64,000 nt of DNA from Candidatus Caccovivens sp. (GCA_045650745.1 JAZRRN010000049.1:128138-192137), one strand, 5' to 3'. Shown: positions 45,329 through 62,827, counted from the stretch's first letter. Notes: a model not told the origin generated them from the sequence alone. Numbers and translations: made by a program.

Positions 45329-45405
45329 TGGTGCGTCGCAAGGGATTCGAACCCCTGACCTTTCGTTCCGTAGACGAACGCTCTATCCAGCTGAGCTAGC
45401 GGCGC
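45329..45405 (-). tRNA. tRNA-Arg (anticodon ACG)
   Basis: Minus strand reads GCGCCGCTAGCTCAGCTGGATAGAGCGTTCGTCTACGGAACGAAAGGTCAGGGGTTCGAATCCCTTGCGACGCACCA. It folds as a cloverleaf with anticodon stem TTCGT/ACGAA, loop CTACGGA, a GTTCGAATC T-loop, and an encoded CCA. Confidence 0.95.
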
Positions 45406-45566: not shown

Positions 45567-46592
45567 TTATTTAACAGTCACACTAAAATATTCAGGATTG
45601 TATGGTTCGTCAAACTTGTCGTTGTCTGTTGAGTTCCAATCTCCTTTTGCACAGTTGGTAAATGTGTTGTTTTGCAACAATACCGTGTTTATTTCTACAT
45701 TTGTGCTGTCAAGAACAATAGCAGGTTTTTCAGTTAAGCCAACAAAAGTGTTGTCTTTAATGGTTATATCTGCTCCAGAAGTTACGACTTTAATGCCTCT
45801 TGTGGTGTTGTTAAATGTGCATCCTTCTATTACAAAAGTGTCAACAAAATCCATATTTGTACCACCGTCTCCACCAACATAGCCTGCCCAAATAGAATAT
45901 CTGCTTGCGATGTTGAAATCAAATACGCAATTTTTTATTGTGGCTTTTGTGCCACGATTGAATTGAACACAATTTGTAAAGGTGCAGTTTTCAATAAACA
46001 ATTCGCCACATTGAAATTCGGTGTTTGTAAGAGTGTAATGACTGCTTGATGTTTTTCTAGTATCATTGATTTTCAATCCGACCACACTTATCTTTCCAGT
46101 TGCCGCAGTCGCATTTTGATTGCTGTGATGTTTTGTTCTAAACACAGCTGTATCAGCAGTTGTAGTGTCGCCTGTTACAAGTGTCAATTCAGGATTTTGT
46201 CCCAAACCCACCAAATATACTTCTGTCGCAGAACCTTTTGCCAAATCGGCAGCACCGCCGGCTGTCCCAGCCACTGCCGCATCATAATCAACAGATCCTG
46301 AAATGATAAAAGTCATTTTGCCATCAATTGGTTGAACATTTTCATCAAACAGAATGCCATCAAGAGTTTGAGCAGATTCGCCAGTTTTTAAATATTCGCT
46401 GCCGACCCCTTTTATCAAATAGCCTCCACACCCCTCACAAAAATCAATTTTTTCATTTCCTGCAAGAACTTCAAATGTGTGCGTGTGTGCTGGTTCCGCT
46501 GGTGGGTTGTTGTCATTAGAACATGCAACACAAACAGCACCTACAAGCATTATTGACAAAACCATAATAAATGTTGTTAGTTTTTTGTACAT
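45567..46592 (-). CDS. Lipoprotein with right-handed parallel beta-helix repeats
   Basis: Signal peptide plus lipobox MYKKLTTFIMVLSIMLVGAVCVAC|S. Repeated [IV]ENCTF.N / IKNCVF / IEGCTFNN / IKDNTF units are typical of pectate-lyase-fold repeats. Confidence 0.75.
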   Translation of the reverse strand: MYKKLTTFIMVLSIMLVGAVCVACSNDNNPPAEPAHTHTFEVLAGNEKIDFCEGCGGYLIKGVGSEYLKTGESAQTLDGILFDENVQPIDGKMTFIISGSVDYDAAVAGTAGGAADLAKGSATEVYLVGLGQNPELTLVTGDTTTADTAVFRTKHHSNQNATAATGKISVVGLKINDTRKTSSSHYTLTNTEFQCGELFIENCTFTNCVQFNRGTKATIKNCVFDFNIASRYSIWAGYVGGDGGTNMDFVDTFVIEGCTFNNTTRGIKVVTSGADITIKDNTFVGLTEKPAIVLDSTNVEINTVLLQNNTFTNCAKGDWNSTDNDKFDEPYNPEYFSVTVK

Positions 46593-46702: not shown

Positions 46703-48514
46703 TTAATTTTGCAGAAAGTTTTTGATTTCGACTGCAAGTGATTGATGTATACCTTTGATTTGGCAGAGTTCTTCAACGCTTGCATTTTTTATTGCTTCGG
46801 TTGTGCCAAAAGCGTTGAGCAGGGCATTGATTTTTACTTTGCCAAGTCCTTTAATGTCTTCCAAGGTTGAGGCTGTTTGCGATTTTGTTCGCACAGTGCG
46901 ATGGAAGGTGATTGCAAAGCGGTGAGCTTCATCTCTAAGTCGTTGCAGAAGTTTGAGTTCGGCGCTGGCGTACTTCAAAATCACAGGGTGTGATTGTTGT
47001 GGCACAAAAACTTCTTCCAATCTTTTTGCAAGAGAGATCATCTCTATTTGGTTTTCAAGCCCAAAGGTTTGCAAAATTTCATAACAAGAAGAAAGTTGCC
47101 CTTTGCCACCGTCAATGACAAGCAAATCTGGTTTTTCTTTGAAACTTTCACCATTTTGATCGACATATCTTTGCAATCTTCGAGAAAGGGTTTCTTTAAG
47201 ACACTCAAAATCGTTGTTGCCGGCAACTGTTTTGATTTTGAATTTGCGATATGCTTTTTTGTCGGCCGTTCCGTTTGTGAAAATGACCATAGATGCAACT
47301 TTGTTTGTGCCACCGATATGCGAAATGTCATAACATTCAATGCGCTTTGGCAAAGTTTTGAGTTTTAGATTTTTTTGAAGTTGTGAGATTGCGCCAATGC
47401 TTGTGTTGTAAGCAATTTTTTCCTTTTCTAAATGCTTTTCCAAATATTCTTTTGCATTTTCTTTTGCCATGTTCAAAAGTGTCAAGTTTGCTGCGTGTGG
47501 GTTTGAGACAATGCTTATCTTTTTGCCTAAGAAATCTGAAAGTAGTTGACTGTCAAGTTGGTGGCTGACCACAATTTCATTTGGAACAATCACATTTTGA
47601 TAATATTGACAAACAAAATTGAAAAGAGTTTGTTCTTGTTCGAGTTCGGCATCGCTTTGTGCAAAATTGGTTATGCCAAGGATTTTGCCTCCACGAATTA
47701 CAATCAAACTTACAACGCCGCTAAGGCCATCGCTGTAATATGCCCAAATGTCTTTGTCGACATCTTTTGCAAGGTTTGCAACAATGCGAGATTTGAGTTT
47801 TGAAATCATCTTCAAGTTGTCACGCAACTGAATGGCTCTTTCAAAGTTTTCAAGGTTGGATGCGGTTTGCATTTTTTGCATAAGGATTTGTTCGATTTCT
47901 TCGTCGTTTCCGTTTAAGAAATTGATTGCTTTTTTGACTTCTTCAAAATATTCTTCTTTTGTTGTTTTTTGAGTGCAAGGGGCAAGACAAAGGCCGAGAG
48001 AATAGTTGAGGCACTCTCTTTTTGCACAAGTGGTTGTTGTTATTTTTGAAGTGCATGTGCGAAGTTTGAATGCAGAACCGATTGTTTTCAAAATTTCTCT
48101 TGGGTCAATGCCAGAAATGTATGGTCCAAAATATCTTGCACCATCATTCTTTTTGACCTTTCGCACGATTTCTAAACGGGGAAAATCTTCTTTAAGATCT
48201 ATTTTAATGTATGGAAAAGCCTTTCCATCTTTGAGAAGTATGTTGTAAAATGGTTGATGTTTGTGGATAAGGTTGCTTTCAAGTCCCAGAGCATCAAGTT
48301 CGCTCATTGCAATAAAATAATCAAAGTCGTCAACATTGTTGACCATAGCCTGAACTTTGCTTGGTTTTGGCGACGAGCGAAAATACTGACTAACCCTGTT
48401 TTTCAGGTTTTTAGCCTTTCCGATGTATATGATATTTCCACCGACATCTCGCATGATATATACGCCGGGTTTTGTCGGCAAAGTTTGCAATTTTTGCTTT
48501 ATTCTGTCGTTCAT
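46703..48514 (-). CDS. uvrC: Excinuclease ABC subunit C
   Basis: GIY-YIG N-terminus PGVYIMRD..GNIIYIGKAKNLKNRVSQYF, the UvrBC domain, and an Endo V-like/HhH C-terminus. The start is set at MNDRIKQKL. An alternative start lies 6 codons upstream at 48532. Confidence 0.92.
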   Translation of the reverse strand: MNDRIKQKLQTLPTKPGVYIMRDVGGNIIYIGKAKNLKNRVSQYFRSSPKPSKVQAMVNNVDDFDYFIAMSELDALGLESNLIHKHQPFYNILLKDGKAFPYIKIDLKEDFPRLEIVRKVKKNDGARYFGPYISGIDPREILKTIGSAFKLRTCTSKITTTTCAKRECLNYSLGLCLAPCTQKTTKEEYFEEVKKAINFLNGNDEEIEQILMQKMQTASNLENFERAIQLRDNLKMISKLKSRIVANLAKDVDKDIWAYYSDGLSGVVSLIVIRGGKILGITNFAQSDAELEQEQTLFNFVCQYYQNVIVPNEIVVSHQLDSQLLSDFLGKKISIVSNPHAANLTLLNMAKENAKEYLEKHLEKEKIAYNTSIGAISQLQKNLKLKTLPKRIECYDISHIGGTNKVASMVIFTNGTADKKAYRKFKIKTVAGNNDFECLKETLSRRLQRYVDQNGESFKEKPDLLVIDGGKGQLSSCYEILQTFGLENQIEMISLAKRLEEVFVPQQSHPVILKYASAELKLLQRLRDEAHRFAITFHRTVRTKSQTASTLEDIKGLGKVKINALLNAFGTTEAIKNASVEELCQIKGIHQSLAVEIKNFLQN

Positions 48515-48612
48515 AAAAACATTGTAGAGCATTTTTTTTCAAAAAACAACCAAATATAATAGAAAAAATATTATATAAATATTTGTTTTTTATTTTATTT
48601 TACCGAAAATTG

Positions 48613-48641
48613 TTGCAAAATAAGTTTGTATTTGTTAAAAT
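48613..48641 (+). promoter_or_regulatory. Promoter TTGCAA-17-(TGt)TAAAAT for the 48671 membrane-protein gene
   Basis: -35 at 48613-18 and -10 at 48636-41. Confidence 0.55.
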
Positions 48642-48670
48642 GATAAAAACTATTTAAGGGAGGGTTGCAG

Positions 48671-51118
48671 ATGCAAACTTCAATGTTATTGGGTATGTTC
48701 GACTGGATTGGAGAGTTTTTTAAGGAACTTTTCAACCTTATTCCAAAAATTATGTACTTGCTTTATGCGTCAATTGCGTGCGTAATCGATGTGTTGCAAC
48801 TCTTTTTCCGTAAACTTGCCGGACTTGATGTTTATTATGTAGACGGCGAAGCAATTACTGGAGACTTGGTTACAAACTTTATTACCGGGATTTTAGGTAT
48901 CAATGCAGAAGGCCTTACATATTCGGCACTTTCAACCGTATTCTGGTCAATGTTGATTTTCGGTATTATCATTTGCTTCATTTCAACATTTATCGCAATC
49001 ATCAAAAGTCACTATACTTATGATGACAAAGCAGCAAAAGGTCCAATGCAATATGTTTACACAGGTGTAAAAGCAATCATCAACATGGTTGCAGCACCAA
49101 TCATCATTGTTTTGGCATTGTTTGTTTCAGAAGCATTGTTGTCAGCACTTGACACCATCACTTCTACCGGAAGTGGATCGGTCGCAGCGATGTATGGCGA
49201 TGCAGTAGATCAGTTGTCGCTGGTTGACACGGTTAAGGGTGCGACCGGAAAGGCAAAAGAAAAAACTTACATATTCTATGATATATTCGGATTCCAAGCA
49301 GGCATTTTGTATGGTCCATCTGGAGGACCTGCAGAAGGCACTTCAAACGAAAAGAAGAAAGAGATTGCAAAGATTGCATCTAAAAACGAAACTTTCTCAG
49401 GATCACTCTTCAAAGTGGCAGCATTCAATGCAAACAGAGCGAGACTTGGACAAATCAACACAACAGGAGCATTTACAGGAAACGCTGGTTCAAGCTGTAC
49501 TTTGTTTAGAAATGCAAAGAGTCAGGAACACTTGGCAGAGATGATTGACATGGCGTTTGCTTGCAACTTGAGAGCTGACAAAGGTTACACATTGGACTAC
49601 ACACCATTTGCAGAAACAGGTGGGGGCATCGTGTCAATGAAATACTTTACAAACTTCTTGTCCCTCAGGGGAACTCACTTCAGTAAGTTTAACATTGGTG
49701 CCGTTTGGTACTATTATGACTTGTGGCAATTCAACTTTATCGTTGGTTTTGCAGGTTGTATCGTTTGTACTTCAATTTTCATAAACATTATCCTTGGTCT
49801 TATGACAAGATTGTTTATGTGTATCGGACTCTTCCTTATCGCATCTCCATTGTTTGGTCTTGCACCAATGGATGGAGGAAAAGCAGGAAAGAGCTGGAGA
49901 GAAAGCTTTACAAAGCAGGTTCTCATGACGTATGGTTCTGTCGTCGGCATGAACTTGATGCTGATGATCCTGCCATATATGAACACAATTGACTTCTTCA
50001 ATGTGGCAATCGCAGACTATTTTGCAAGAACATTGCTTATCATTGTTGGTCTTATCACAATCAAAGCATTCATCGGTGTATGTTCGAGCTTGGTTGGTGG
50101 TGAAGATGCCAACAAGACAGGTGACGGAATTAAGAAAGAAGTTGCTTCAGTTGCCGGAAAAGCAACAAGCATGACTGTTGGTGCTGCAAAACTTGGTGTC
50201 AAAGGTACAGCGCTTGCTGCAAAGGGATTCAACCAATCAGTTGCTTTGGGTGCTGCTGGTGTAAGAGCTGCAGCAGGTGGAATCGATGCACTTCGTGCTG
50301 GCGCAAAAGGTAGAGAAGCTACTAGATTGCATACAGAGTTCAACCTCAACAGACAAACTAGAGCAGGCACTGCTGGTGCAACAGCAAGAAGCACAGCCGT
50401 TGGCCGTATGACAATGGGTGCATCTGGCAGAGCTGGAAGAAGAGAAGACAATCAAGCAAGACAAGATTTGATGGCTGCAGGATACAGCAGAAGAACAGCA
50501 AATCAAATGGTTAGAGATATGCGTGCTGAAGTAAATGCTGGCCGTGGCGCAACAGCCGCAGCAACAGCAAGAAGCAACGCAGCATCTACACTTGCAAGCA
50601 CAAGAAACGCTGCTCGTAACGCATCTGCTCAACTTAGAACAAGATCTACAACAAGACTTAGCAGAGCTGCTACAAGTGTTGGAAACAACCAAATTGCTCA
50701 AGCAGTATGGAGACCAATGAGAGCAGTTGGATCTGCAGTTGCTCATCCAAGAACAACTCTCAGAGCAATGGGCACAGGCATCGCAAATGCAGGAAGAAGT
50801 GTAAACAGAGCAATCAACAGTCAAACAATTGGTGGAACAATTGGTGGAGCACTTGGTTTTGCAGGTGGTGCATTAACAGGAGATGACTTCACAAAAGAAT
50901 TTATGCACGAATCTGGCATTAAGAGAAAACCTGACCATGCTAGAGATACAGCAAACAACACAGCTGCTACTAGACAAGCCGCACAAGGCATGGCTAGACA
51001 ACAAGCCGAAGCTAGATATCAAGCTTGGTTGGCTACTCCAGCTGGTACTAGAGCAGGTATCCCAGCAAGAAATGCTGAAAGAGCTCGTATTTACAGAGAA
51101 TATGGTTTGACTCCATAA
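48671..51118 (+). CDS. Polytopic membrane protein with ~330-aa Arg/Ala/Gly/Thr-rich C-terminal tail (function unknown)
   Basis: SD GGGAGGG lies 6 nt before the ATG at 48671; the ORF-track TTG at 48665 abuts the SD. The first ~480 aa have multiple hydrophobic helices. The remainder is low complexity, for example GATARSTAVGRMTMGASGRAGRRE and AATARSNAASTLASTRNAARNASAQLRTRS. A terminator follows. Confidence 0.7.
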   Translation: MQTSMLLGMFDWIGEFFKELFNLIPKIMYLLYASIACVIDVLQLFFRKLAGLDVYYVDGEAITGDLVTNFITGILGINAEGLTYSALSTVFWSMLIFGIIICFISTFIAIIKSHYTYDDKAAKGPMQYVYTGVKAIINMVAAPIIIVLALFVSEALLSALDTITSTGSGSVAAMYGDAVDQLSLVDTVKGATGKAKEKTYIFYDIFGFQAGILYGPSGGPAEGTSNEKKKEIAKIASKNETFSGSLFKVAAFNANRARLGQINTTGAFTGNAGSSCTLFRNAKSQEHLAEMIDMAFACNLRADKGYTLDYTPFAETGGGIVSMKYFTNFLSLRGTHFSKFNIGAVWYYYDLWQFNFIVGFAGCIVCTSIFINIILGLMTRLFMCIGLFLIASPLFGLAPMDGGKAGKSWRESFTKQVLMTYGSVVGMNLMLMILPYMNTIDFFNVAIADYFARTLLIIVGLITIKAFIGVCSSLVGGEDANKTGDGIKKEVASVAGKATSMTVGAAKLGVKGTALAAKGFNQSVALGAAGVRAAAGGIDALRAGAKGREATRLHTEFNLNRQTRAGTAGATARSTAVGRMTMGASGRAGRREDNQARQDLMAAGYSRRTANQMVRDMRAEVNAGRGATAAATARSNAASTLASTRNAARNASAQLRTRSTTRLSRAATSVGNNQIAQAVWRPMRAVGSAVAHPRTTLRAMGTGIANAGRSVNRAINSQTIGGTIGGALGFAGGALTGDDFTKEFMHESGIKRKPDHARDTANNTAATRQAAQGMARQQAEARYQAWLATPAGTRAGIPARNAERARIYREYGLTP

Positions 51119-51135
51119 TCTAAACAATAAGAAAA

Positions 51136-51161
51136 GGCGGAATTGATTTCCGTCTTTTTTT
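51136..51161 (+). terminator. Rho-independent terminator
   Basis: GGCGGAA/TTCCGTC stem with one G-U pair, followed by T7. Confidence 0.75.
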
Positions 51162-51233
51162 GTTATCTTTTTGAAAAAGGTGTTTTTTGAGAGATTTTTA
51201 TTCGACTTTCAAATATTTGCCACAAATAGAATT

Positions 51234-52478: not shown

Positions 52479-52631
52479 AAAGGAGACAGAAATAAAAAAC
52501 ACTCTTTAAAAATGTTGTTGAAAAACATTAGTTTGCTTGATTTTGAGTTTTTTTGATATTTCTTTACTTTTGATGCCAGTTTGATATATTATGTTTATAT
52601 AAATAAACTTCACTATATAAGAGGAAAGCAA

Positions 52632-55600
52632 ATGAGAAAAAAGCATTTTATTTTTGTTTTGTGTTGCATGATGTTCTGTTGGGCAGTGACAGCCTTTTTG
52701 TCAATGCCTACACAAATGACTCTTGCTCAAGAAAATGTTCATAGTCAAGAGGTTTCTGACTTTTTGAGATTTGAACAGGCGATCATCGACTTAAACAATT
52801 CGAAAGATCAACAAGTGATTTCTCAACAGGTTGCTTTGGCAGAAGTAGAGATTGAAGAAGATATTGTTTGTGAAGATGTCCAAAGTGTCGATTTTTCGTT
52901 GAAGAGGTTGATTGTTCAAGGAAATGTGACAAACACTTATGGGGCGACTGATAAATTGTCGTTTAGCAACCTGAATGTTTTGTGTTACAAGACCGAAAAA
53001 GAAACAAAAGATGCGTTTGAAAAACTTGCGCAAAATTCAAACCTTGATGTTGTTGTTGACAAAATTGAAAAAGTTGATGGATATGCTCAACAAGATTATA
53101 CTTACACCAACAAAAACTGGGGCGCAGAGGCTATTGATGTTGGGGGTTACAAGCAATTTCTTGTTGACAGCGATGTGCAAGATGAAGTTGTGGTTGTTGT
53201 TATGGACACAGGCATCAATACATCTCATTCAATGTTTGCAAACAGATTGCTTAAAGACAGAGTAGGAAAAATAAGAGGCTTTTCTTATTATGATTCAAAA
53301 TACAAATACAGCTATCGAAATTTAGGTTTTGATGTTGATGATTTGACAACACAAGACATTGATGAAAGTGATTTAAACAAATATAGTTTTGAAGATGATC
53401 ATGGACACGGCACACATGTTGCAGGCATCGTTTGTGATCTTACACCAAAAAATGTAAAGATTTTGCCAATCAAAGTTGGAAATGATGAGGGGTTTTCTTC
53501 AACATCAATTTTTTTGGCAGCTTATTTGAGAGTGATCAACATTTATTCAAAACAATATAAAATTGCTTGCACAAACTTGAGTTTTTCCGGAGCTGGAAAA
53601 TCAAGCGAGGCTGACAAAAATCAATTTAACGAACAATGCTATCAACCAATGAAAGAACTTGGAATCTTGGCAATCACAGCAGCAGGAAATGAAAGCGAAG
53701 AGATCAATATTGAAGGGTTGGAAGCGATTGTTGTTTCTGCTTTGAAACAATCAGAAGGCGAATATAAATTTGAAAATGAATATTCAAACTATGGAAAAAT
53801 GATTGACATTTCTGCACCAGGAACAGATATTGAATCTGCTTGGATTGCAGGAAACGCAGCAAACTCGACATACGAGACCCATTCAGGGACTTCAATGGCA
53901 TCACCACAAGTTGCTGGGGTTGTTGCATTGTTGGCTCTTCACCCAGATTATCAAGGTTTTACAGCAGAAGAAATGGAGCAAAAGTTGTATGATCTTGCTG
54001 TTGATTTGGGCGATTGGGGAAGAGATGATTATTATGGCTACGGCATGGCAAACATCAAATATTTTGAGGCTGAGGAGTTTGATGAAACTTTGTCTTTTTA
54101 TCGTGACAATGTTTTGATTGAAGTGCACCCAAATTGGGAAAACTTTGAAACAGACTTTACTCTTAAAATAGAATGTTCAGATGCAAGTTATCAAATCATT
54201 TACACAACAAATCAAGCACTTCCAACACTGACAAATGCGACTGTTTATTCAAATCCAATGACAGTCAGCGACACAATTTATTTGAATGTTATGGGGGTGA
54301 AAATTGACAACGGAATAGTTGTTGCAAAGACAGATGTTTACAATGTGGCATTTTTCGATTCTCGCAATCCATTGGAACAATATTTTGAAATTTCAAACGG
54401 CACATTGAGAAAGTATACTGGACACTTTGACAATTTGGTTATCCCAACTGTTATGAAGGGACAAACAGTCAAAACTGTTGGCAATAGCTTGTTTTTGTGG
54501 AACAATCTTCAGTCAATCACTTTGCCAGAAACCGTAACAAGCATTTCAGGATATGCATTTCAAAACTGCAAAGACCTTGTTTATGTTGATGCTCCAAGTG
54601 TTGCAGAAATTTATCTTGCAGGATTTAGTGGTTGCGATTCTTTGACAATGATCTGCGACAGAAATCCAGTGCAAGGAGAAACAGAAGGTGTTTTCTTGCC
54701 AAATCTTACAACTACAAAAGGGTTTGTGTTTAATATTTGCAAAAATCTTCAATCTGTAAATTTGTCAAAATTGACCACTGCCGGAGAATATGATTTTCAA
54801 GCATGCTATCAATTGACATCTGTATATTTGCCAGCAGTAAAAGTGTTTGAAGAAGGCATGTTTGCTTTTTGTGAAAACCTTACTGGAACATTTTTCTTTG
54901 GCAAAGATGTTGAAACAATTGAAACACGAGCTTTTTCACACACAAAGATAAAAAGATTTGAGATTGCAAAAGGAAACACAAACATTTACACTGATGGGCT
55001 TGGCGTTTACACAAAAGACACACTTGTTTGTTTTGCTGCAGGAAACACAAACATCAATTATGAAATTTTGGGCAGTGTTTCAATTGGAGGAGAAATCTGC
55101 ACAATCACAAAACTCGGAGAAGTTGCTTTGGGGTTGGTGGAACTCAACAAATTGACAATCCCTGAAACGATTAACATTATTGGTGCGTGGGTGGGCTCAG
55201 AATCTAAAATCCACCACTTGTATTTTGATGCTAAAAACTGTTCGGAAGATGGATATTATAAGACAATAAGTGGCGTTACAGGCAGATGCCCACCTTGGGA
55301 CACTTTTTCTATCATAGAAATCGGCCCAAATGCAACAAGGGTGCCATTGAGAATTTTTCAAGATGTTTATTTTGATGAGTTGATTATCAATTCTCGAGCA
55401 ACATATTTTGAAACTGCAAGTTTGTATAGATTTAGAGATCAAGGAGTTTTAAACAAACTCGTGTTCAATTTTGCTGACAAGATTGATTCAAGTTATTTGA
55501 ATATGGTTGTTGGGACATCAGCACTTTGCACTTACAATGACATCAATTATATTTATTCAAAAGCAGAAGTGCCAGTCAGTTCTTCATCATATTTATCAAG

Positions 55601-58046
55601 TTTGAGATATTCAACATACGACGGAGAGTATTATATTTACAGCAAATCTCCAATTGTGACTGAAGAAAAATTTGTCATCAGTGCCACCTCAAACACTTAT
55701 GGAAAGATTTCACCTTCGGGAGACAATTATTTCACAAAAAACAGTTCGGCAACATTTATGTTTGAAGCAAATACAGGTTGTTATGTTGCAAGCATAAAGG
55801 TTGATGGTGTGGCATTGTCTGTTGAAGAAGTTGAAATAGCAAGCACAAATGGTTACACATTTGAAAATATTGAAAGTGACCACACAATTGAAGTTGTGTT
55901 TGCGAGAAGAATTTACAGAATTTCAGTCGTTCAGTCGCCAAACGGACTTATAAGTGGTGCGGCAGATGGATATTATTATGGCGAAGTAGCAACCTTTACG
56001 ATCACGCCAAGTGTAGGCTATTATGTCGAATGTTTGATTGTAGATGGCGAAGAAGTTTATGAGCATCCAACCTGGCACAAATTTTTGTATATCACAGAAA
56101 ACCATACAATAAGTGCAAAGTTTTCTCCAAAACCAAACACTGGATACACTGCCAAACATTGGGTTGAAAGTTTGACCGAAGAAGGGGCAACTCGTTTTGG
56201 TCAAAAGTATTACAACTTGATCACAACAGATTCGTCATACGCCGGCACGACTGCAGAAATGACAGCTGTTGTGGCAGGAAGTTATGAAGGTTTCACTGTT
56301 CAACAATTTGAGCAAAAAGTTATTTTGGGAGATGGAAGCACGGTTGTTGATGTGCTTTACAACAGAAATGCATATACTGTAAACCTTGCAAAAGGCGAAG
56401 GCGTGACAGCTGTTTCTGGAGATGGAACTTATTTGTTTGGACAAACAGTGACACTGACTGCAATTCTTGCAGAAGGATATGATTTTTCAGTTTGGACAAG
56501 TTCAAACCATTCGGTTGTTGCAAACGGAAATGTTGCACAATATTCGTTTGCAATGCCTGCAAGTTCGGTTGGATTTACTGCAAATGCGGCAATAAGACAG
56601 CTTGCTGTGTCAATAAGCGCAACAACAAATGGCAGCATTAGTCCTGCAACAACTCAAACTGTGAGTTACGGTGATGATTTGTTGCTGACTGTTGAGGCAG
56701 ATTATGGTTACGAATTGAAAGAACTTTTAGTTAATGGGGTTGATGTTTCGAATTTGGTTGAAGATGGAAAATATACCATTGAAAATATCAAACAAACCTA
56801 TATTGTTGTGGCAAACTTTGGTTTGGTAAAACACACAATCACAGCAACTTCAAACTTTGGTGGAGAAGTTGGTCCAGAAGGGACAATATTTGTGATTCAT
56901 GGAGAAATGCAAAACTATACCTTCTCGCCAAGCGAAGGTTACAGGGTTAAAGATGTCAAGGTTAACGGAGTGTCTGTTGGCAGTGTTGAAAATTATTTGT
57001 TTGAAAGAGTGTTGACAGATCAAACTGTTGAAGTCGAATTTGAAAAACTTGTTTTCACAATCGAAGTTGTTTGTGGTGACAACGGAAGTGTGGGACCAAA
57101 CGGTCTTGTAAGTGTTGAATATGGAAACAGCAAAACTTTTGCGATCACACCAGATGAAGGTTATGGAATTTTGACAGTTGAGTTGAATGGTGAAAGTTTG
57201 GCTATTACAACACAAATCATTGTAGAAAATGTTACAGAAAACAAAACTTTGAGAGTTGTGTTTGCTCAAATGTTTTTGCTTTCTGCCGAAAGTGATGAAA
57301 ACGGATCGATCACACCATCTGAAATTGTTATTTGGGGTGGACAAAAGAGATTTGATTTTCAACCAAACAAGGGATATCAAGTCAAAGATGTCAAAGTTGA
57401 TGGCGTAAGCATCGGGGCAGTTGATTTTTACACATTTGTCAATGTTGATAGAACGCACAGAATTTCAGTAGAATACGAAATCAAAAAACTCAACATTGTT
57501 TTGTATGTTGACGGATGCGGCATTGTTGAATGCGAAAACTTGTTGGAAGATGTGCTTTACGGAGATTCGAGATCTTTTGCTGTCACAGCTGACAAAGGTT
57601 GGAAACTGAGAAGCGTTTTTGTCAACGGAGAAACATTTGAAGTTTTAAATGGAAACCTAGAAATAGACCATGTGACAGAAAATTTGACAATCCAAGTGAT
57701 TTTTGAAAAGAGTTACACAAAAACTGCAGTGTTGATTGTAGTGATTGTTGGATCTGTTATGGTTTTAGGTCTTGTGGCATTTGTGACAATCAATGTCAAC
57801 AAGAGATTAAAGAAAAAGAAAATGGACAGCATGCTAAACGACTCAATGGGTCAAGGTGGTGTTCAACAAGCGCAAGCGACTGCATATATGACGCCACACC
57901 CAATGGTTAATCATGCATTGAATTTGGCTTCACAAAATCAACAAGACTTTGTTAAGTATTGTGAAGCAAACAAACTTGACCACAAGCAAAACTATGTCAA
58001 TGCGGCATTGAGTTATTATCAATCTCGCATAAAAACTAAAAAATAA
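52632..58046 (+). CDS. Secreted, TM-anchored multidomain surface protein: subtilisin-like S8 protease + BspA-type leucine-rich repeats + MucBP-like/Ig-like modules
   Basis: The start is set at MRKKHF behind AGAGGAAAG. Signal peptide ...AFLSMPTQMTLA|QE. S8 triad motifs are VVMDTGIN, HGHGTHVAG and HSGTSMASPQVAG. The LRR run is of the type ...VKTVGNSLFLWNNLQSITLPETVTSISGYAFQNCKDLVYV.... Repeated ~85-aa Ig-like units are of the type GS[IV][GS]P.G...V..G....F.F.P..GY.V.DV.V[ND]G. The TM helix is TAVLIVVIVGSVMVLGLVAFVTINV, followed by an ~85-aa tail. Confidence 0.88.
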   Translation: MRKKHFIFVLCCMMFCWAVTAFLSMPTQMTLAQENVHSQEVSDFLRFEQAIIDLNNSKDQQVISQQVALAEVEIEEDIVCEDVQSVDFSLKRLIVQGNVTNTYGATDKLSFSNLNVLCYKTEKETKDAFEKLAQNSNLDVVVDKIEKVDGYAQQDYTYTNKNWGAEAIDVGGYKQFLVDSDVQDEVVVVVMDTGINTSHSMFANRLLKDRVGKIRGFSYYDSKYKYSYRNLGFDVDDLTTQDIDESDLNKYSFEDDHGHGTHVAGIVCDLTPKNVKILPIKVGNDEGFSSTSIFLAAYLRVINIYSKQYKIACTNLSFSGAGKSSEADKNQFNEQCYQPMKELGILAITAAGNESEEINIEGLEAIVVSALKQSEGEYKFENEYSNYGKMIDISAPGTDIESAWIAGNAANSTYETHSGTSMASPQVAGVVALLALHPDYQGFTAEEMEQKLYDLAVDLGDWGRDDYYGYGMANIKYFEAEEFDETLSFYRDNVLIEVHPNWENFETDFTLKIECSDASYQIIYTTNQALPTLTNATVYSNPMTVSDTIYLNVMGVKIDNGIVVAKTDVYNVAFFDSRNPLEQYFEISNGTLRKYTGHFDNLVIPTVMKGQTVKTVGNSLFLWNNLQSITLPETVTSISGYAFQNCKDLVYVDAPSVAEIYLAGFSGCDSLTMICDRNPVQGETEGVFLPNLTTTKGFVFNICKNLQSVNLSKLTTAGEYDFQACYQLTSVYLPAVKVFEEGMFAFCENLTGTFFFGKDVETIETRAFSHTKIKRFEIAKGNTNIYTDGLGVYTKDTLVCFAAGNTNINYEILGSVSIGGEICTITKLGEVALGLVELNKLTIPETINIIGAWVGSESKIHHLYFDAKNCSEDGYYKTISGVTGRCPPWDTFSIIEIGPNATRVPLRIFQDVYFDELIINSRATYFETASLYRFRDQGVLNKLVFNFADKIDSSYLNMVVGTSALCTYNDINYIYSKAEVPVSSSSYLSSLRYSTYDGEYYIYSKSPIVTEEKFVISATSNTYGKISPSGDNYFTKNSSATFMFEANTGCYVASIKVDGVALSVEEVEIASTNGYTFENIESDHTIEVVFARRIYRISVVQSPNGLISGAADGYYYGEVATFTITPSVGYYVECLIVDGEEVYEHPTWHKFLYITENHTISAKFSPKPNTGYTAKHWVESLTEEGATRFGQKYYNLITTDSSYAGTTAEMTAVVAGSYEGFTVQQFEQKVILGDGSTVVDVLYNRNAYTVNLAKGEGVTAVSGDGTYLFGQTVTLTAILAEGYDFSVWTSSNHSVVANGNVAQYSFAMPASSVGFTANAAIRQLAVSISATTNGSISPATTQTVSYGDDLLLTVEADYGYELKELLVNGVDVSNLVEDGKYTIENIKQTYIVVANFGLVKHTITATSNFGGEVGPEGTIFVIHGEMQNYTFSPSEGYRVKDVKVNGVSVGSVENYLFERVLTDQTVEVEFEKLVFTIEVVCGDNGSVGPNGLVSVEYGNSKTFAITPDEGYGILTVELNGESLAITTQIIVENVTENKTLRVVFAQMFLLSAESDENGSITPSEIVIWGGQKRFDFQPNKGYQVKDVKVDGVSIGAVDFYTFVNVDRTHRISVEYEIKKLNIVLYVDGCGIVECENLLEDVLYGDSRSFAVTADKGWKLRSVFVNGETFEVLNGNLEIDHVTENLTIQVIFEKSYTKTAVLIVVIVGSVMVLGLVAFVTINVNKRLKKKKMDSMLNDSMGQGGVQQAQATAYMTPHPMVNHALNLASQNQQDFVKYCEANKLDHKQNYVNAALSYYQSRIKTKK

Positions 58047-59317: not shown

Positions 59318-60565
59318 ATGATAATACAATTTAACTTCAAAAATTTTAGATCTTTTAAGGATAAAAATACAATAGATATGCGAGCTACAAAAATTACAGA
59401 ATATAAAGACCAGATTGTAGAGGTTAATGATTTAAAGTTATTGCCAATTGCTACATTTTATGGTGCAAATGCTAGTGGTAAATCAAATGTTTATTATGCT
59501 CTTGAATTTATGAGGACGATGGTATTGAGGTCTTTTTCTTTTGGGGGTACTTCTAAAGAAACAAGTGAAATTTTTTATGATTTTAACAATAATGTGCAAT
59601 TTGCTTTTGATGACGAAGCAAATAAGGCAGATACTGAATTTGAAATTATTTTTACAACTAAGTATAACGAAAAGAGTTATGTCTTTGATTATGGTTTTTC
59701 TCTCAATCCAGATAACATAATAAAAAGTGAATGGTTGAAAACGAAAGCACCATCATCAAAATCATTTAAAGATATATTTGCTAGAAATGAACAAGAAATA
59801 AATTTATGTGGGCTGACAAAAGAATATGCCAACATGATTAGATTAACATTAGAGAAAGAAGTTTTAATATTATCATTAGGTTCAAAACTTAAAATCGAGA
59901 TTTGCAAAATTGTTAGAGAGTGGTTTGAAAAAATAGAATGTTTGAATTTTTCAGGCGGTTTAAATGCTTTATTTGCTAGTGAAAGGTCTCCTAAGCAGTT
60001 TGAAAAAGAAGAAATTCAAAAAAATATTTTAGATTTTATTTCTAGTTTTGATGATTCAATCAAAGGTTTTAGAAAAATTGATGACGAAAAGAAAAAGTTT
60101 TCTAATTATCCTGTTAATGCACTGCATGATACGATTGATAATTCAGGGCAAAAAGAGTTGTCATTAGATAATGAATCTGCAGGAACTAGAAAGATGATTA
60201 GTTTATATTCGCCAATTAAAGACGTTTTGGGCAATGGCGGAGTGTTGCTTGTTGATGAATTAAATGCAAGATTGCACCCACTTTTAGTTCGAAATATTAT
60301 AAGAGAATTTGCAAATAAAGGAACAAACCCACTTGGTGCACAATTACTATTTACAACACATGATACATTTCATTTAGGAGATAATTTATTAAGAAGAGAT
60401 GAAATATGGTTTGTAGAAAAAAATAAAGGAATTTCTAATCTTTATTCTCTTGCTGATTTTGAATATAACGGGACAAAGATAAGAAAAGATGCTGATTTAG
60501 AAAAAAATTATTTGCTAGGAAAATATGGTGCGATTCCTGACTTGAAGCCATTTAATTTGAAATAG
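59318..60565 (+). CDS. AAA_21/AAA_15-type (ABC/SMC-like) ATPase, AbiLi-like
   Basis: The N-terminus MIIQFNFKNFRSFKD is typical. Walker A is GANASGKSN and Walker B is LLVDELNARLHP. A late H-loop-like THD is present. SD AAGGAGG. Confidence 0.8.
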   Translation: MIIQFNFKNFRSFKDKNTIDMRATKITEYKDQIVEVNDLKLLPIATFYGANASGKSNVYYALEFMRTMVLRSFSFGGTSKETSEIFYDFNNNVQFAFDDEANKADTEFEIIFTTKYNEKSYVFDYGFSLNPDNIIKSEWLKTKAPSSKSFKDIFARNEQEINLCGLTKEYANMIRLTLEKEVLILSLGSKLKIEICKIVREWFEKIECLNFSGGLNALFASERSPKQFEKEEIQKNILDFISSFDDSIKGFRKIDDEKKKFSNYPVNALHDTIDNSGQKELSLDNESAGTRKMISLYSPIKDVLGNGGVLLVDELNARLHPLLVRNIIREFANKGTNPLGAQLLFTTHDTFHLGDNLLRRDEIWFVEKNKGISNLYSLADFEYNGTKIRKDADLEKNYLLGKYGAIPDLKPFNLK

Positions 60566-60576
60566 TGAGGTAAAAA

Positions 60577-61215
60577 ATGGCAAACAAAAGAGAAATCTTA
60601 GCACCTAGAAGGTCCGGATTCAAGAGTCAAAATTTACCCAGATACTTAATTGTCGTTGATACAGAGCAAACGGAATTTAATTACTTAAACGGATTAAAAA
60701 ACACAATCCCACGACATCTTGTTGATAGAGTTGATATCCAAATAAAAAATACTAGTACTGATAATTTAGTGGACTATTGCTTAAATATGTGTAGAAAAAA
60801 TCCGAATTATGTAACTCCTTGGATTGTTTTCGATAGAGATAGAGTGGTAAATTTTGATGAAATAATCCGTGATGCATATAGTCATAAAATTAATGTTGCA
60901 TGGTCTAATCCTTGTATTGAAACTTGGTTTTTTAGTTATTATGATAAACCACAAAATATTTCTGAGTCTACTATTTGTGTGTCAAAGTTTAAAGAAAAAT
61001 TTAAACAGGAGACCGGACAAGAATATAAAAAGAATGACAAAAACATATATAGAAAGTTAAATCGAACAGGGTCTCAAGATAAGGCAATAAAATATCATGA
61101 TGTTAAATTTAGAAATTATAGACAAGATGCGACTCCTCCATCGGAGATGTTTTCTTGTTCCACAATGTATATGTTAATTTCTGAACTACTTGAAATTATT
61201 AGTAAATTGAAATAA
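60577..61215 (+). CDS. RloB-family (Toprim-like) protein, AbiLii-like
   Basis: The N-terminus ...PRYLIVVDTEQTEFNYLNGL resembles the RloB signature (ilIvcEGekTEpnYf). It is 212 aa and lies 11 nt after the ATPase gene. Confidence 0.6.
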   Translation: MANKREILAPRRSGFKSQNLPRYLIVVDTEQTEFNYLNGLKNTIPRHLVDRVDIQIKNTSTDNLVDYCLNMCRKNPNYVTPWIVFDRDRVVNFDEIIRDAYSHKINVAWSNPCIETWFFSYYDKPQNISESTICVSKFKEKFKQETGQEYKKNDKNIYRKLNRTGSQDKAIKYHDVKFRNYRQDATPPSEMFSCSTMYMLISELLEIISKLK

Positions 61216-61395
61216 ATACATGGCAATACTTACCATTTTACAGATGGCAATTCGCATTAAAAAGTTAACTGATTTAATTCAAAATATTTTTCTTCTAATT
61301 AAAAAGGAGGTAACTATTATGGCTTATGAAGTTAATAAACTTCTTGTTGTTTGCGTGTGAATTGGGTATTGCCGGACGCGAGTCACAAGAAGTTT

Positions 61396-61423
61396 ACCAG
61401 AGTTTTTCTCTGGTTTTTATTTT
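61396..61423 (+). terminator. Rho-independent terminator downstream of the ATPase/RloB pair and the micro-ORF
   Basis: ACCAGAG (61396-61402) pairs with CTCTGGT (61408-61414), followed by TTTTATTTT. Confidence 0.7.
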
Positions 61424-61624
61424 GAAAAATTTCTAAAAACAAATAAATTTAATTTTGTTTGTTTTTTATTTTGAAAATTCAATACTTGATTAATATGTCG
61501 TGTAAAAAAATATTTTTCATAGTTTCAAAAAATCTAGTAAAATATAAAAAATTTATAAAAAACAAAACAAATATAAAAAATATGTGTTATAATATATCTT
61601 ATATTGGAGAATTAAAGGAATTTT

Positions 61625-62827
61625 ATGAAAAAGACGATTTGTGAATTATTCGCTGGTGTTGGCGGGTTTAGATTAGGATTTGAAAGACAATCACAAGATT
61701 GGGAAACTGTTTGGTTTTCTCAATGGGAACCAGGTGCTAAAAATCAATGGGCTCATCAATGTTATGTAAGTCATTGGGGCGATATTGATAATAACACAGG
61801 CATTGATATAGCAGAAGTAAATAAAAGCGAAATACCAAACCATAACTTATTGGTTGGTGGTTTTCCATGCCAAGATTATTCTGTTGCTCATAGTTTAAGT
61901 AGTAGTCATGGTATTGAAGGAAAGAAAGGTGTTTTATGGTGGCAAATAAGGGATATTTTAGAAGAGAAACAACCACCTTTTGTTTTGCTTGAAAATGTAG
62001 ATAGATTATTGAAATCTCCAGCAAAACAAAGAGGTAGAGATTTTGGTATTATTTTATCTTGTTTTGCTCAACTAAATTATTCTGTAGAATGGAGAGTTGT
62101 TAATGCTGCAGAATTTGGTGCTGCGCAAAGAAGACGAAGAATTTTCATTTTTGCTTACAAGAATACTACAAATTGGGCTAATAATAAAACAAATGAAACT
62201 TATAAAGATATTATTCTAAATACAGGACTTTTTGCAAGAGCATTTCCTATTGCAGAAAATGGTGCTATTAAAAATGAAGAGTTTAGATTTGATGACTTGT
62301 TGAAAGTATCAAACGAATTCAAATATGATTTTAAAAATGCTGGAGTTATGTCAAATGGAAATATTTATTCTTGTGATGTTAAAGCTCAAACAGAAGAAAG
62401 CACCCCATTAATTAATATTATAGAGCATAATGTTGATGAAGAATTTTATATAACCAATAATCTTGAGAAGTGGCAATATTTAAAAGGATCCAAAAAAATA
62501 AATAGAACCAGCAAAGATGGACATTCTTATGTGTTTAGCGAAGGATCTATCGCTTTCCCTGATTCATTGGATATGCCAGCTAGAACAATGCTAACATCAG
62601 AGTCTACACTAAATCGTAGCACTCATGTTATTAGAGATGTTGAGACAAATAATTTGAGACTAATTACACCTGTTGAAGCTGAAAGAATACAGGGATTTGA
62701 TGATAACTGGACAAATACAGGCATGCCAAAGAAAATGAGATATTTTTGCATGGGAAATGCCTTGGTTGTTCCAATGATAACAAGAATGGCAAATATACTT
62801 GAAGATATTTTTAATGAGGAGGATTAA
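61625..62827 (+). CDS. DNA (cytosine-5)-methyltransferase, M.Sau3AI-like
   Basis: Motif I ELFAGVGGFRLGFE, IV GGFPCQDYS, VI ENVDRLL, VIII QRRRRIFIF, IX TPVEAERIQGF, X GNALVVP. The QWEP...GKKGVLWWQI...SPAKQRGRDF runs match my recollection of M.Sau3AI. Confidence 0.9.
   Translation: MKKTICELFAGVGGFRLGFERQSQDWETVWFSQWEPGAKNQWAHQCYVSHWGDIDNNTGIDIAEVNKSEIPNHNLLVGGFPCQDYSVAHSLSSSHGIEGKKGVLWWQIRDILEEKQPPFVLLENVDRLLKSPAKQRGRDFGIILSCFAQLNYSVEWRVVNAAEFGAAQRRRRIFIFAYKNTTNWANNKTNETYKDIILNTGLFARAFPIAENGAIKNEEFRFDDLLKVSNEFKYDFKNAGVMSNGNIYSCDVKAQTEESTPLINIIEHNVDEEFYITNNLEKWQYLKGSKKINRTSKDGHSYVFSEGSIAFPDSLDMPARTMLTSESTLNRSTHVIRDVETNNLRLITPVEAERIQGFDDNWTNTGMPKKMRYFCMGNALVVPMITRMANILEDIFNEED

Follow-up and report, generated by a model that had tools for sequence, protein, structure and literature searches.

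The inner-membrane translocon of type IV secretion is generally taken to be a protein of the VirB6 type, and such proteins are known almost solely from mobile elements and dedicated secretion loci. The subject of this report is a gene at 48671-51118 of a 64-kb stretch of DNA (called the window, by which the whole analysed stretch is meant). It encodes an 815-amino-acid (aa) polytopic membrane protein which quite probably is a homologue of the transmembrane (TM) proteins of conjugation, with the extended-VirB6 architecture, chromosomal and inherited vertically. Among the described systems, the canonical VirB6/TrbL proteins (PF04610; TrwI of R388, 7O3V) probably supply the closest, though weakly scoring, PDB folds to the predicted model, and like the window protein they span the inner membrane with several helices and have a conserved loop containing a Trp; they are, however, ~300-340 aa long against 815 aa here, and no sequence or profile similarity between the two was found. 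The extended VirB6 proteins of Gram-positive bacteria (gene 49 of pLS20, TcpH of pCW3, ConG of ICEBs1, Orf15 of Tn916) share the size of 700-1,000 aa and the plan in which an N-terminal part with several TM helices leads into a long extension, hydrophilic or unstructured, but their genes adjoin those of the type IV coupling protein, VirB4 and VirB3 on plasmids or integrative and conjugative elements (ICEs), and no such neighbours were found here. The 'gene 49, putative extended-VirB6' of the pLS20 family (PMC8557374) is pLS20_p028. VirB6 homologues of MPF_FA have 700-900 residues with added unstructured domains, the role of these extensions being open, and the multi-TM protein CDS16 of mycoplasma ICEs is regarded as VirB6-like (PMC12857230). 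The mycoplasma ICE proteins of the models NF045848 and NF045889 show hidden Markov model (HMM) homology to the end of the external domain and TM4-TM6 of the window protein. These models cover ~306-322 positions, whereas the window protein, of 815 aa, has one more TM block at its N-terminus and also the long basic tail; they come from ICEs that also carry VirB4 (CDS17) and VirD4 (CDS5) homologues in wall-less Mollicutes, whereas the gene described here lies in a housekeeping locus of Clostridia. The Rickettsiales proteins VirB6-1 to VirB6-4 (Anaplasma/Ehrlichia) are tandem paralogs with long hydrophilic C-terminal extensions, to which three tandem paralogs found in a sister clade of our gene may be likened. 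These Rickettsiales paralogs are said to be part of a virB/D system that is scattered but still recognisable, in intracellular bacteria of the Gram-negative type. In the epibiotic Patescibacteria a type IV secretion system (T4SS) likewise makes conjugation-type membrane machinery a core function of a reduced-genome, partner-dependent monoderm; there the full set (VirB1/3/4/6/8, VirD4, pilins) is in one locus, whereas here the VirB6-like gene alone was seen. The common transporter superfamilies do not have the 3+3 TM layout, large external domain and long tail of this protein.

Similarity to conjugation proteins

Judged by profile comparison, the membrane core of the protein is homologous to the TM proteins of mycoplasma ICEs and is probably related, more distantly, to pLS20 gene 49. 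NF045848 (MMCAP2_0566 family conjugal transfer protein) was matched by residues 293-481 over profile positions 140-318 of 322 with E 1e-28 and 100.6 bits, which is above the cut-off of 90. The match to NF045889 (Mbov_0396 family ICE element transmembrane protein; E 4.5e-16, 59.2 bits) is below the equivalog cut-off of 70. Yet all 48 of the 48 diverse relatives tested match both NF045848 (best E 6e-39) and NF045889 (best E 7e-26). The model NF045890 (pLS20_p028 family) is matched by 3 of the 48 members (best E 2.7e-7) and not by the window protein itself. On aligning the family by hhalign with a 20-sequence alignment of pLS20_p028, we obtained a match with a probability of 70% and E 3.9e-5 over 154 columns (query 347-509), in which YYYDLW is paired with YYRYSWHP and PLDxGxAFKxWR with LTDLExGQRNKK, along with an Ala/Lys-rich stretch after the last TM helix. 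In the pLS20 record, pLS20_p028 is a 974-aa protein directly downstream of a VirD4-like coupling protein. It may be noted that the pLS20 'extended VirB6' family has no profile match to canonical VirB6; therefore 'VirB6-like', as applied to the Gram-positive proteins, is at the sequence level an architectural and positional label. The architecture of an extended VirB6 comprises at least 5 hydrophobic helices, a large hydrophilic or unstructured domain in the centre or at the C-terminus and a length of 700-900 aa or more (PMC12857230, PMC8557374), and we found six TM helices, a 190-aa domain and a 340-aa tail. Pfam returned no family for the query (best hit CorA, E 0.54) or for the 48 relatives, and searches of the PDB by sequence and by profile gave only artefacts of the low-complexity tail (huntingtin polyQ, Mediator 15).

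A confident AlphaFold2 (AF2) model was obtained for residues 1-515 from an 80-sequence alignment (predicted local distance difference test, pLDDT, 88.4; predicted template modelling score, pTM, 0.85), and its predicted fold appears closest, weakly, to the VirB6 proteins. When this model was searched with Foldseek, ranks 1-9 of 350,542 PDB chains were entries of the R388 stalk complex. Going by example chains, five of the nine (7o3v F-J) are inferred to be TrwI/VirB6; in the entries of the other four (8rt9_F and 8rtd H, I, L) TrwJ/VirB5 is present as well. Transporter hits of the same model all had E >3. The first full-length AF2 model (pLDDT 65) had given no Foldseek match. In BFVD, rank 1 was an uncharacterised 1,389-aa protein (E 1.5e-3, prob 1.00, 491 columns) and rank 2 an 891-aa protein annotated as 'TrbL/VirB6 plasmid conjugal transfer protein' (E 1.4e-2, prob 0.95, 542 columns).

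As a separate observation, three of the structural neighbours in BFVD (A0A8S5RVT2, A0A8S5RVB3 and A0A8S5RVN7) belong to a single 'phage' contig set, 'Siphoviridae sp. ctHip2'. They comprise the unknown protein of 1,389 aa, the 891-aa protein with the TrbL/VirB6 annotation and an 'Autolysin E'. The trio resembles a conjugative T4SS module more than phage genes, and the record may be a misclassified conjugative element.

Membrane topology and the basic tail

The open reading frame (ORF) runs on the + strand in a single frame from 48665 (TTG) or 48671 (ATG) to 51118. The start is taken at the ATG: 815 aa is the correct length because the strong ribosome-binding site AAGGGAGGG is present 5 nt before it and the homologues begin at the same methionine. 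The reading of this stretch made earlier from the sequence alone (the sequence-only reading) had proposed the same 815-aa ORF with a polytopic membrane layout, and both are upheld here. From hydropathy and AF2 we obtain six TM helices in a 3+3 arrangement, three in residues ~23-159 and three in 353-475, split by a ~190-aa domain that faces outward. The helices had been placed correctly in the first ~480 aa; the soluble loop between them is also real, but measures ~190 aa (49.15-49.73 kb) and not the ~150 originally given. The density of Lys and Arg over 48 members is high in the loops 112-130 (0.18) and 400-415 (0.19) and in the tail (0.18), and low in 47-84 (0.09), 160-352 (0.066, net acidic) and 438-449 (0.045). 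By the positive-inside rule this pattern would make the N-terminus and the tail cytoplasmic, with the conserved 190-aa domain on the outer face. Over 143 sequences D40 (TM1), R380 (TM4) and N428 (TM5) are invariant, all of them within or edging TM helices, and P143 in TM3 is invariant as well. Q43 (TM1) and R47 (end of TM1) are fully or almost fully invariant according to the alignment used, and D401 and W409 in the cytoplasmic loop of the second membrane block are nearly invariant. The extracytoplasmic domain carries the conserved motifs TYxxYDxFG, TFSGxLFKxAAYxANRxR, IDxAFAxNL and FSKFNVGLVWYYYDLW.

The tail (residues ~476-815, ~340 aa) is composed of 22% Ala, 12% Arg, 12% Gly and 10% Thr, with a net charge of about +31, and is predicted to be helical or disordered (AF2 pLDDT 37-60 over most of it). 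This agrees with the strongly basic low-complexity region that had been described from ~50.1 kb onward, and the ordered-looking end also mentioned there corresponds to the last ~45 residues, modelled as confident helices (pLDDT 84-92). The GC content reaches 0.47-0.50 at 50.0-50.8 kb (peak 0.50 at 50.2-50.6 kb) against ~0.33-0.41 on either side, and stop-free ORFs of 144, 195 and 84 aa lie beneath the tail on the antisense strand, so that the local GC rise over open antisense frames was rightly seen. The significance implied for it does not hold. GC at third codon positions (GC3) is 0.21 in the tail against 0.40 in the N-terminal domain, and the rise is entirely in codon positions 1 and 2 (Ala GCN, Gly GGN, Arg AGA/CGN). 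The raised GC of the tail is therefore due to its amino-acid composition and is no sign of foreign DNA; a foreign origin was considered for the GC-rich tail and rejected on its GC3, which is below that of the N-terminal domain. Most orthologues behave alike, with tail GC equal to or above that of the N-terminal domain, yet with lower GC3. The quasi-repeats of the sequence-only reading are present as a 25-nt imperfect direct repeat in 3 copies and as short tandems (12-nt x2.8 and 6-nt x3.7), but they do not make up a repeat array; we rejected that description in favour of low complexity.

All full-length homologues have a tail, of 220-390 aa and net positive. The richness in Arg is specific to the source species (R 13.6% and K 1.4%, against K 10-18% and R 3-7% in most orthologous tails), which suggests by composition that Lys and Arg are interchangeable here. 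The tails can no longer be aligned once the identity of the N-terminal domains drops to 60-70%. Only three tail islands are common to near relatives, namely ~591-625, ~728-760 and the C-terminal helices 770-815. The first is partly conserved among close relatives, with G604 at least 90% conserved in 119 sequences, and in the second the conservation rises locally to 0.5. The C-terminal helical module is found only in the nearest relatives, and 3 of 118 close homologues end, like it, in Y..YGL. The tail is a fast-evolving module and looks mosaic.

Inheritance, proposed role and rival explanations

The gene had been taken for an orphan, which it is not. A word-indexed search gave at least 475 homologues, and the 120 listed all have E <1e-189 and are nearly all 700-890 aa long. 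A phmmer search of residues 1-515 against 1.84 billion cluster representatives (50% identity) gave 1,505 clusters at E <=1e-3, 880 at E <=1e-10 and 310 at E <=1e-30, the listed full-length ones being mostly 700-1,000 aa. On scanning one genome per GTDB species, the gene was found in 69 species-level metagenome-assembled genomes, all of which derive from the gut of animals or humans and bear the labels Clostridia, 'Candidatus Caccovivens', uncultured Christensenella or uncultured Catabacter. Caccovivens is the GTDB genus UBA11517 of the family UBA1242, order Christensenellales (PMC8035907). Members of UBA1242 are reported to have genomes <1 Mb that lack amino-acid, nucleotide and lipid biosynthesis as well as standard sugar, amino-acid and peptide importers, yet keep sporulation genes, and a partner-dependent lifestyle has been proposed for them (PMC12306168).

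In 58 of the 76 loci examined uvrC adjoins the gene, mostly divergently, among relatives of 42-77% overall identity, and YqeY, a metallophosphoesterase and Spo0A recur downstream in these uvrC-linked loci. Two more distant members lie elsewhere, one beside secA/glmS/gerA and the other beside rplK/rplA/nusG/secE. The gene described here is single-copy. In the sister clade (29-41% identity) three tandem paralogs of ~845, 745 and 790 aa follow tatD, ksgA and an HD-domain gene. The three-paralog operon is preceded by a gene for a highly variable protein of 400-1,050 aa with no significant Pfam match; in most cases it spans the membrane once and is very acidic in its N-terminal half (net -8 to -56). 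This acidic bitopic protein apart, we found no convincing conserved partner gene beside the gene. In the three-paralog clade a variable defence island lies downstream, and in the uvrC clade the neighbours of unassigned function encode lipoproteins or bitopic proteins without Pfam domains. Homologues in ICEs had been suggested as something to look for in the neighbourhoods; what the neighbourhoods hold instead is conserved housekeeping loci.

The N-terminal 515 residues are as conserved as UvrC, and the two identities track each other (67% and 72% for UvrC in L003, 68% and 74% in L010, 54% and 68% in L050). Against the closest genome, L001, the dN/dS (ratio of nonsynonymous to synonymous substitution rates) of the N-terminal domain is about 0.03. 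The divergence from L001 is uneven along the gene: codons 1-300 have dS 0.11-0.29 and dN <=0.009, codons 301-500 have dS of just 0.015, and codons 531-815 have dS 0.95-1.5 and dN 0.33-0.76, where uvrC has dS 0.265 and dN 0.02. The L001 protein P0002 (L001 10001-12406) has 98.8% identity to the query in the N-terminal domain and 47.6% in the tail, and the tails of P0002 and P0003 are 86% identical with N-terminal domains only 88% identical. From this pattern, recombination has evidently exchanged segments within the gene and left it mosaic. The mosaic divergence also suggests that recombination was recent over the TM4-TM6 segment and that the tail was replaced by a divergent allele.

No conjugation genes were found in the 64-kb window or beside any relative examined, as had been noted for the window from its sequence. 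VirB4, VirD4, VirB11 and TcpA/B/C/F/G (from pLS20, pCW3 and R388) gave no tblastn hit in the 1.32 Mb of window and 76 loci, which cover 64 kb of the source genome and +/-10 kb around the genes of relatives. The N-terminal domain gave no tblastn relative in 72,556 PLSDB plasmids or 50,697 INPHARED phage genomes, and a pattern scan of IMG/VR found none either. PADLOC gave no hit, and PHROGs gave only weak noise in the tail region. An origin of the gene as plasmid, phage or ICE cargo was rejected on the lack of relatives in PLSDB, INPHARED and IMG/VR. The synteny with uvrC, the lack of VirB4, VirD4 or Tcp hits nearby and the lack of plasmid, phage or IMG/VR relatives together lead us to regard the gene as chromosomal and vertically inherited and not as ICE cargo; by its dN/dS it is under very strong purifying selection.

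We propose, as a tentative reading that falls a little short of probable, that the gene encodes a domesticated extended-VirB6-like membrane platform or channel, which is a lineage-core gene with a role in exchange. The protein would oligomerise in the cytoplasmic membrane in the manner of VirB6 and form a platform or proto-channel, in which the buried invariant residues D40, Q43, R380 and N428 might line or gate the channel and the outward domain would be its external face. The basic tail would serve in the cytoplasm as an electrostatic tether, its polyanionic partner being either nucleic acid or an acidic protein or else the surface of the membrane; composition and charge would count for this and not the sequence. 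The most likely role of such a platform would be the exchange of macromolecules or metabolites with other cells. We suggest this role because the genomes are reported to be <1 Mb and to lack biosynthetic pathways and standard importers, and are probably partner-dependent; the analogy with the essential T4SS of Patescibacteria also suggests it. Taken by itself, this channel and exchange mechanism is conceivable but doubtful. In a bolder form, a stand-alone VirB6-like conduit would work without the classical T4SS ATPases, triplicated in one subclade and with the tail capturing cargo or partners; this we consider rather unlikely.

Several points weigh against the domesticated platform. We know of no VirB6-like protein that works without the VirB4 ATPase. 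T4SS partners may be encoded elsewhere in the genome, beyond the span searched (64 kb and +/-10 kb). Pfam TrbL (PF04610) was not matched by the query at E <=1, nor by any of the 48 members at E <=5; hhalign gave a probability of 0.7% against a 34-sequence TrwI family, nothing significant against a single TrwI and a probability of 2% against TcpH of pCW3. The hhalign link to pLS20_p028 is itself moderate (70%) and not decisive, and the PDB fold matches are weak (E 0.6-2, prob <=0.72, TM-score <=0.35 over ~130-140 columns). Which ICE coding sequence underlies NF045848 and NF045889, CDS16 or another, is not stated in PMC3053259, PMC6030558 or PMC12175501. The window is presumed to belong to UBA1242 from Caccovivens-labelled relatives of ~50% identity, a low GC of 0.375 and its neighbours, and the VirB6-like oligomerisation, the tether and the exchange with its cargo are steps that we infer. 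The loose resemblance to VirB6/TrbL in the sequence-only reading is borne out by NF045848, by the pLS20_p028 link and by weak VirB6 folds, and fails with Pfam TrbL and with the TrwI profile.

The alternative that survives best, though we think it unlikely, is that the protein is one part of a dispersed chromosomal T4SS, with VirB4 and VirD4 partners elsewhere in the genome, which transfers DNA or protein between cells. The homology to conjugation TM proteins and the VirB6-like nearest folds fit it, the three tandem paralogs of the sister clade recall the tandem VirB6 paralogs of Rickettsiales, and for a lineage proposed to be partner-dependent the essential T4SS described in Patescibacteria offers a parallel. 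But such genes are normally clustered, and none was found in the window or within +/-10 kb of the 76 loci; the UBA1242 survey, besides, makes no mention of any secretion or conjugation genes (PMC12306168).

Two further alternatives are improbable to a similar degree. In one, the protein would simply transport solutes or conduct ions; it would resemble conjugation proteins only incidentally, and its tail would be regulatory or anchoring. In its favour, invariant charged and polar residues lie within TM helices, UBA1242 has no recognisable standard importers and must take up many metabolites, and the context and conservation are housekeeping-like. However, no transporter family was hit in Pfam, NCBIfam, or PDB sequence or fold searches, the sole significant family matches are conjugation TM proteins, and the 3+3 TM layout is atypical. 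It may be noted that a match to a characterised transporter, with a tail absent or unconserved in orthologues, had been named beforehand as the outcome that would speak against the gene as described; we found no transporter match, and the tail is always present, with its sequence essentially unconserved. In the other, the protein would be a membrane anchor, its tail tethering the nucleoid, RNA or ribosomes, or an acidic partner (for example in division or sporulation) and its core acting as a scaffold. The long, basic, Ala/Lys/Arg-rich helical or disordered tail is like histone-H1-like and TolA-like segments, its charge is conserved where its sequence is not, an acidic bitopic protein is encoded upstream in the three-paralog operons, and sporulation genes are kept in the lineage. 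Yet the strongest constraint is on the membrane core and the external domain rather than on the tail, which is hard to explain for a mere anchor, and nucleic-acid binding by the tail is only putative.

An exclusion, immunity or phage-interaction protein, in which an arms race drives the evolution of the tail, is very improbable: the tail does evolve rapidly and looks mosaic, and defence islands stand beside some loci, but what varies is a cytoplasmic part, the exposed domain being highly conserved, PADLOC gave no hit, and the adjacent defence genes differ between loci and are not conserved partners. Least probable of all is a decayed remnant of an ICE or conjugative element with no current cellular role, to which the family name and the homology to ICE proteins, a phage-type integrase ~4 kb off in L001 and the mosaic recombination in the gene would point, and which synteny and purifying selection largely refute, with the position next to uvrC kept across species whose UvrC is only 68-77% identical, the low dN/dS, an ORF intact and full length in hundreds of clusters, and neither the integrase in the window or other loci nor relatives on plasmids, phages or viral contigs.

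The kind of protein, extended VirB6-like, is already known, and NCBI's own rule would name the protein after its conjugal-transfer family. In full-text searches aimed at it we found no description of a solitary, syntenic and strongly constrained core gene of this type, triplicated in one clade, in what seems to be a gut family with reduced genomes. If the domesticated platform and the assignment to this lineage are correct, the cell has taken over a piece of the conjugation machinery for a function of its own, and the protein becomes a candidate for the 'hypothetical membrane proteins' that were proposed to mediate the dependence of UBA1242-type bacteria on other cells. Several hundred sequences with a constant core and fast tails would then be a natural experiment on the role of the extended-VirB6 tail. 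A relative is kept, or even triplicated, in what appear to be among the smallest gut Firmicute genomes. Should VirB4 and VirD4 be present elsewhere in complete genomes, the result would be a conserved chromosomal T4SS in a symbiotic Firmicute lineage, which is also of interest.

Feature coordinates and surrounding genes

The coordinates are collected in Table 1. The gene is real and looks expressed, and it encodes a conserved core chromosomal membrane protein. The promoter candidate is within the 138-bp divergent intergenic region shared with uvrC, and with the terminator it agrees with the claim that the gene has its own signals, the promoter as a candidate by consensus match; uvrC and GrpB, both recognised by Pfam, are the neighbours that had been named.

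Table 1. Positions in the window of the gene, of the parts of its product and of the adjoining signals
Feature	Position	Strand	Basis or remark
uvrC, divergent syntenic neighbour (context only)	46703..48532	-	Pfam
Sigma-70-like promoter candidate, TTGCAA-17 nt-TAAAAT, extended -10 TG	48613..48641	+	consensus scan, consensus match alone
Ribosome-binding site AAGGGAGGG	48657..48665	+	read from sequence
Coding sequence, 815-aa polytopic membrane protein, probably extended-VirB6-like	48671..51118	+	stop codon 51116-51118
First membrane block TM1-TM3, residues ~23-159	48737..49147	+	hydropathy, AF2 helices pLDDT 86-98, invariant columns
Predicted extracytoplasmic alpha/beta domain between TM3 and TM4, residues 160-352	49148..49726	+	AF2 pLDDT mostly 87-96
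NF045848-matching segment, residues 293-481	49547..50113	+	NCBIfam HMM
Second membrane block TM4-TM6, residues 353-475	49727..50095	+	hydropathy, AF2; aligns to pLS20_p028
Predicted cytoplasmic basic Ala/Arg/Gly/Thr-rich tail, residues 476-815	50096..51115	+	composition; AF2 pLDDT 37-60 over most
Tail island 1, residues ~591-625 (...LMAAGYSRRTANQMVRDMR...)	50441..50545	+	AF2 blocks pLDDT 76-80
Tail island 2, residues ~728-760, GFAGGALTGDDFxxxFMHxSGIKxKPD	50852..50950	+	tail alignment
C-terminal helical module, residues 770-815, QGMARQQAExRYQAWL...IYxEYGL	50978..51115	+	AF2 pLDDT 84-92
Intrinsic terminator, 17-bp stem, 5-nt loop, T-run	51126..51164	+	

The rest of the window holds housekeeping and surface-protein genes, namely gatA/gatB, asnS, malQ, tmk, ppa, uvrC, GrpB and DUF3841, together with an S8-LRR (leucine-rich repeat) surface protease and a giant repeat protein. 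A tRNA-Arg(ACG) gene (45329-45405, -) and a gene for a 341-aa lipoprotein with a right-handed beta-helix domain (45567-46592, -) are placed between an S41 peptidase gene and uvrC. In L001 a phage-type integrase with small genes (4505-5935) lies beyond uvrC, ~4 kb from the gene, and downstream of the gene in L001/L002 (12,997-18,801) are DUF4238, SMC_N/AAA_21 and a helicase of the Schlafen group. The window lacks these insertions and carries GrpB and DUF3841 in their place. Variable or defence genes seem to have hotspots in the flanks of the gene, also in L066. In the window itself, genes in a row at 59318-62827 (+) encode an AAA_21 (AbiEii/OLD-like) ATPase, a protein resembling RloB, and a C-5 cytosine DNA methyltransferase; they probably form an islet for defence or restriction-modification. 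The three-paralog loci are at ~5,100-12,500 in L059, L061, L063-L066 and L069, at ~7,800-17,200 in L062, L065, L068 and L071, and at ~2,170-8,840 in L060; in L070 and L075 the locus is partial or truncated. The acidic bitopic protein upstream of these paralogs may be a partner for their basic tails, which we mention as an idea.

Two large genes of the window may also be noted. The giant ORF at 1-28046 (+) encodes 9,307 aa from the ATG at 123, and its frame is open to the window start, so that the protein is longer. It is rich in Thr, Val, Ala, Gly and Tyr and ends in a TM anchor followed by RKRRKDRAK; its first 3,000 aa include at least 13 repeats of the Listeria-Bacteroides (Flg_new) type. 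The gene would make up ~3% of the genome if that is <1 Mb like those of the presumed family. The relative L005 has a 14,191-aa gene at the same position, just before tmk. At 52581-58046 (+), close to our gene, a 1,821-aa surface protein is encoded with an S8 subtilase, BspA-type LRRs, InlB B-repeat-like domains and a C-terminal TM anchor, a large protein of adhesin- or protease-like character.

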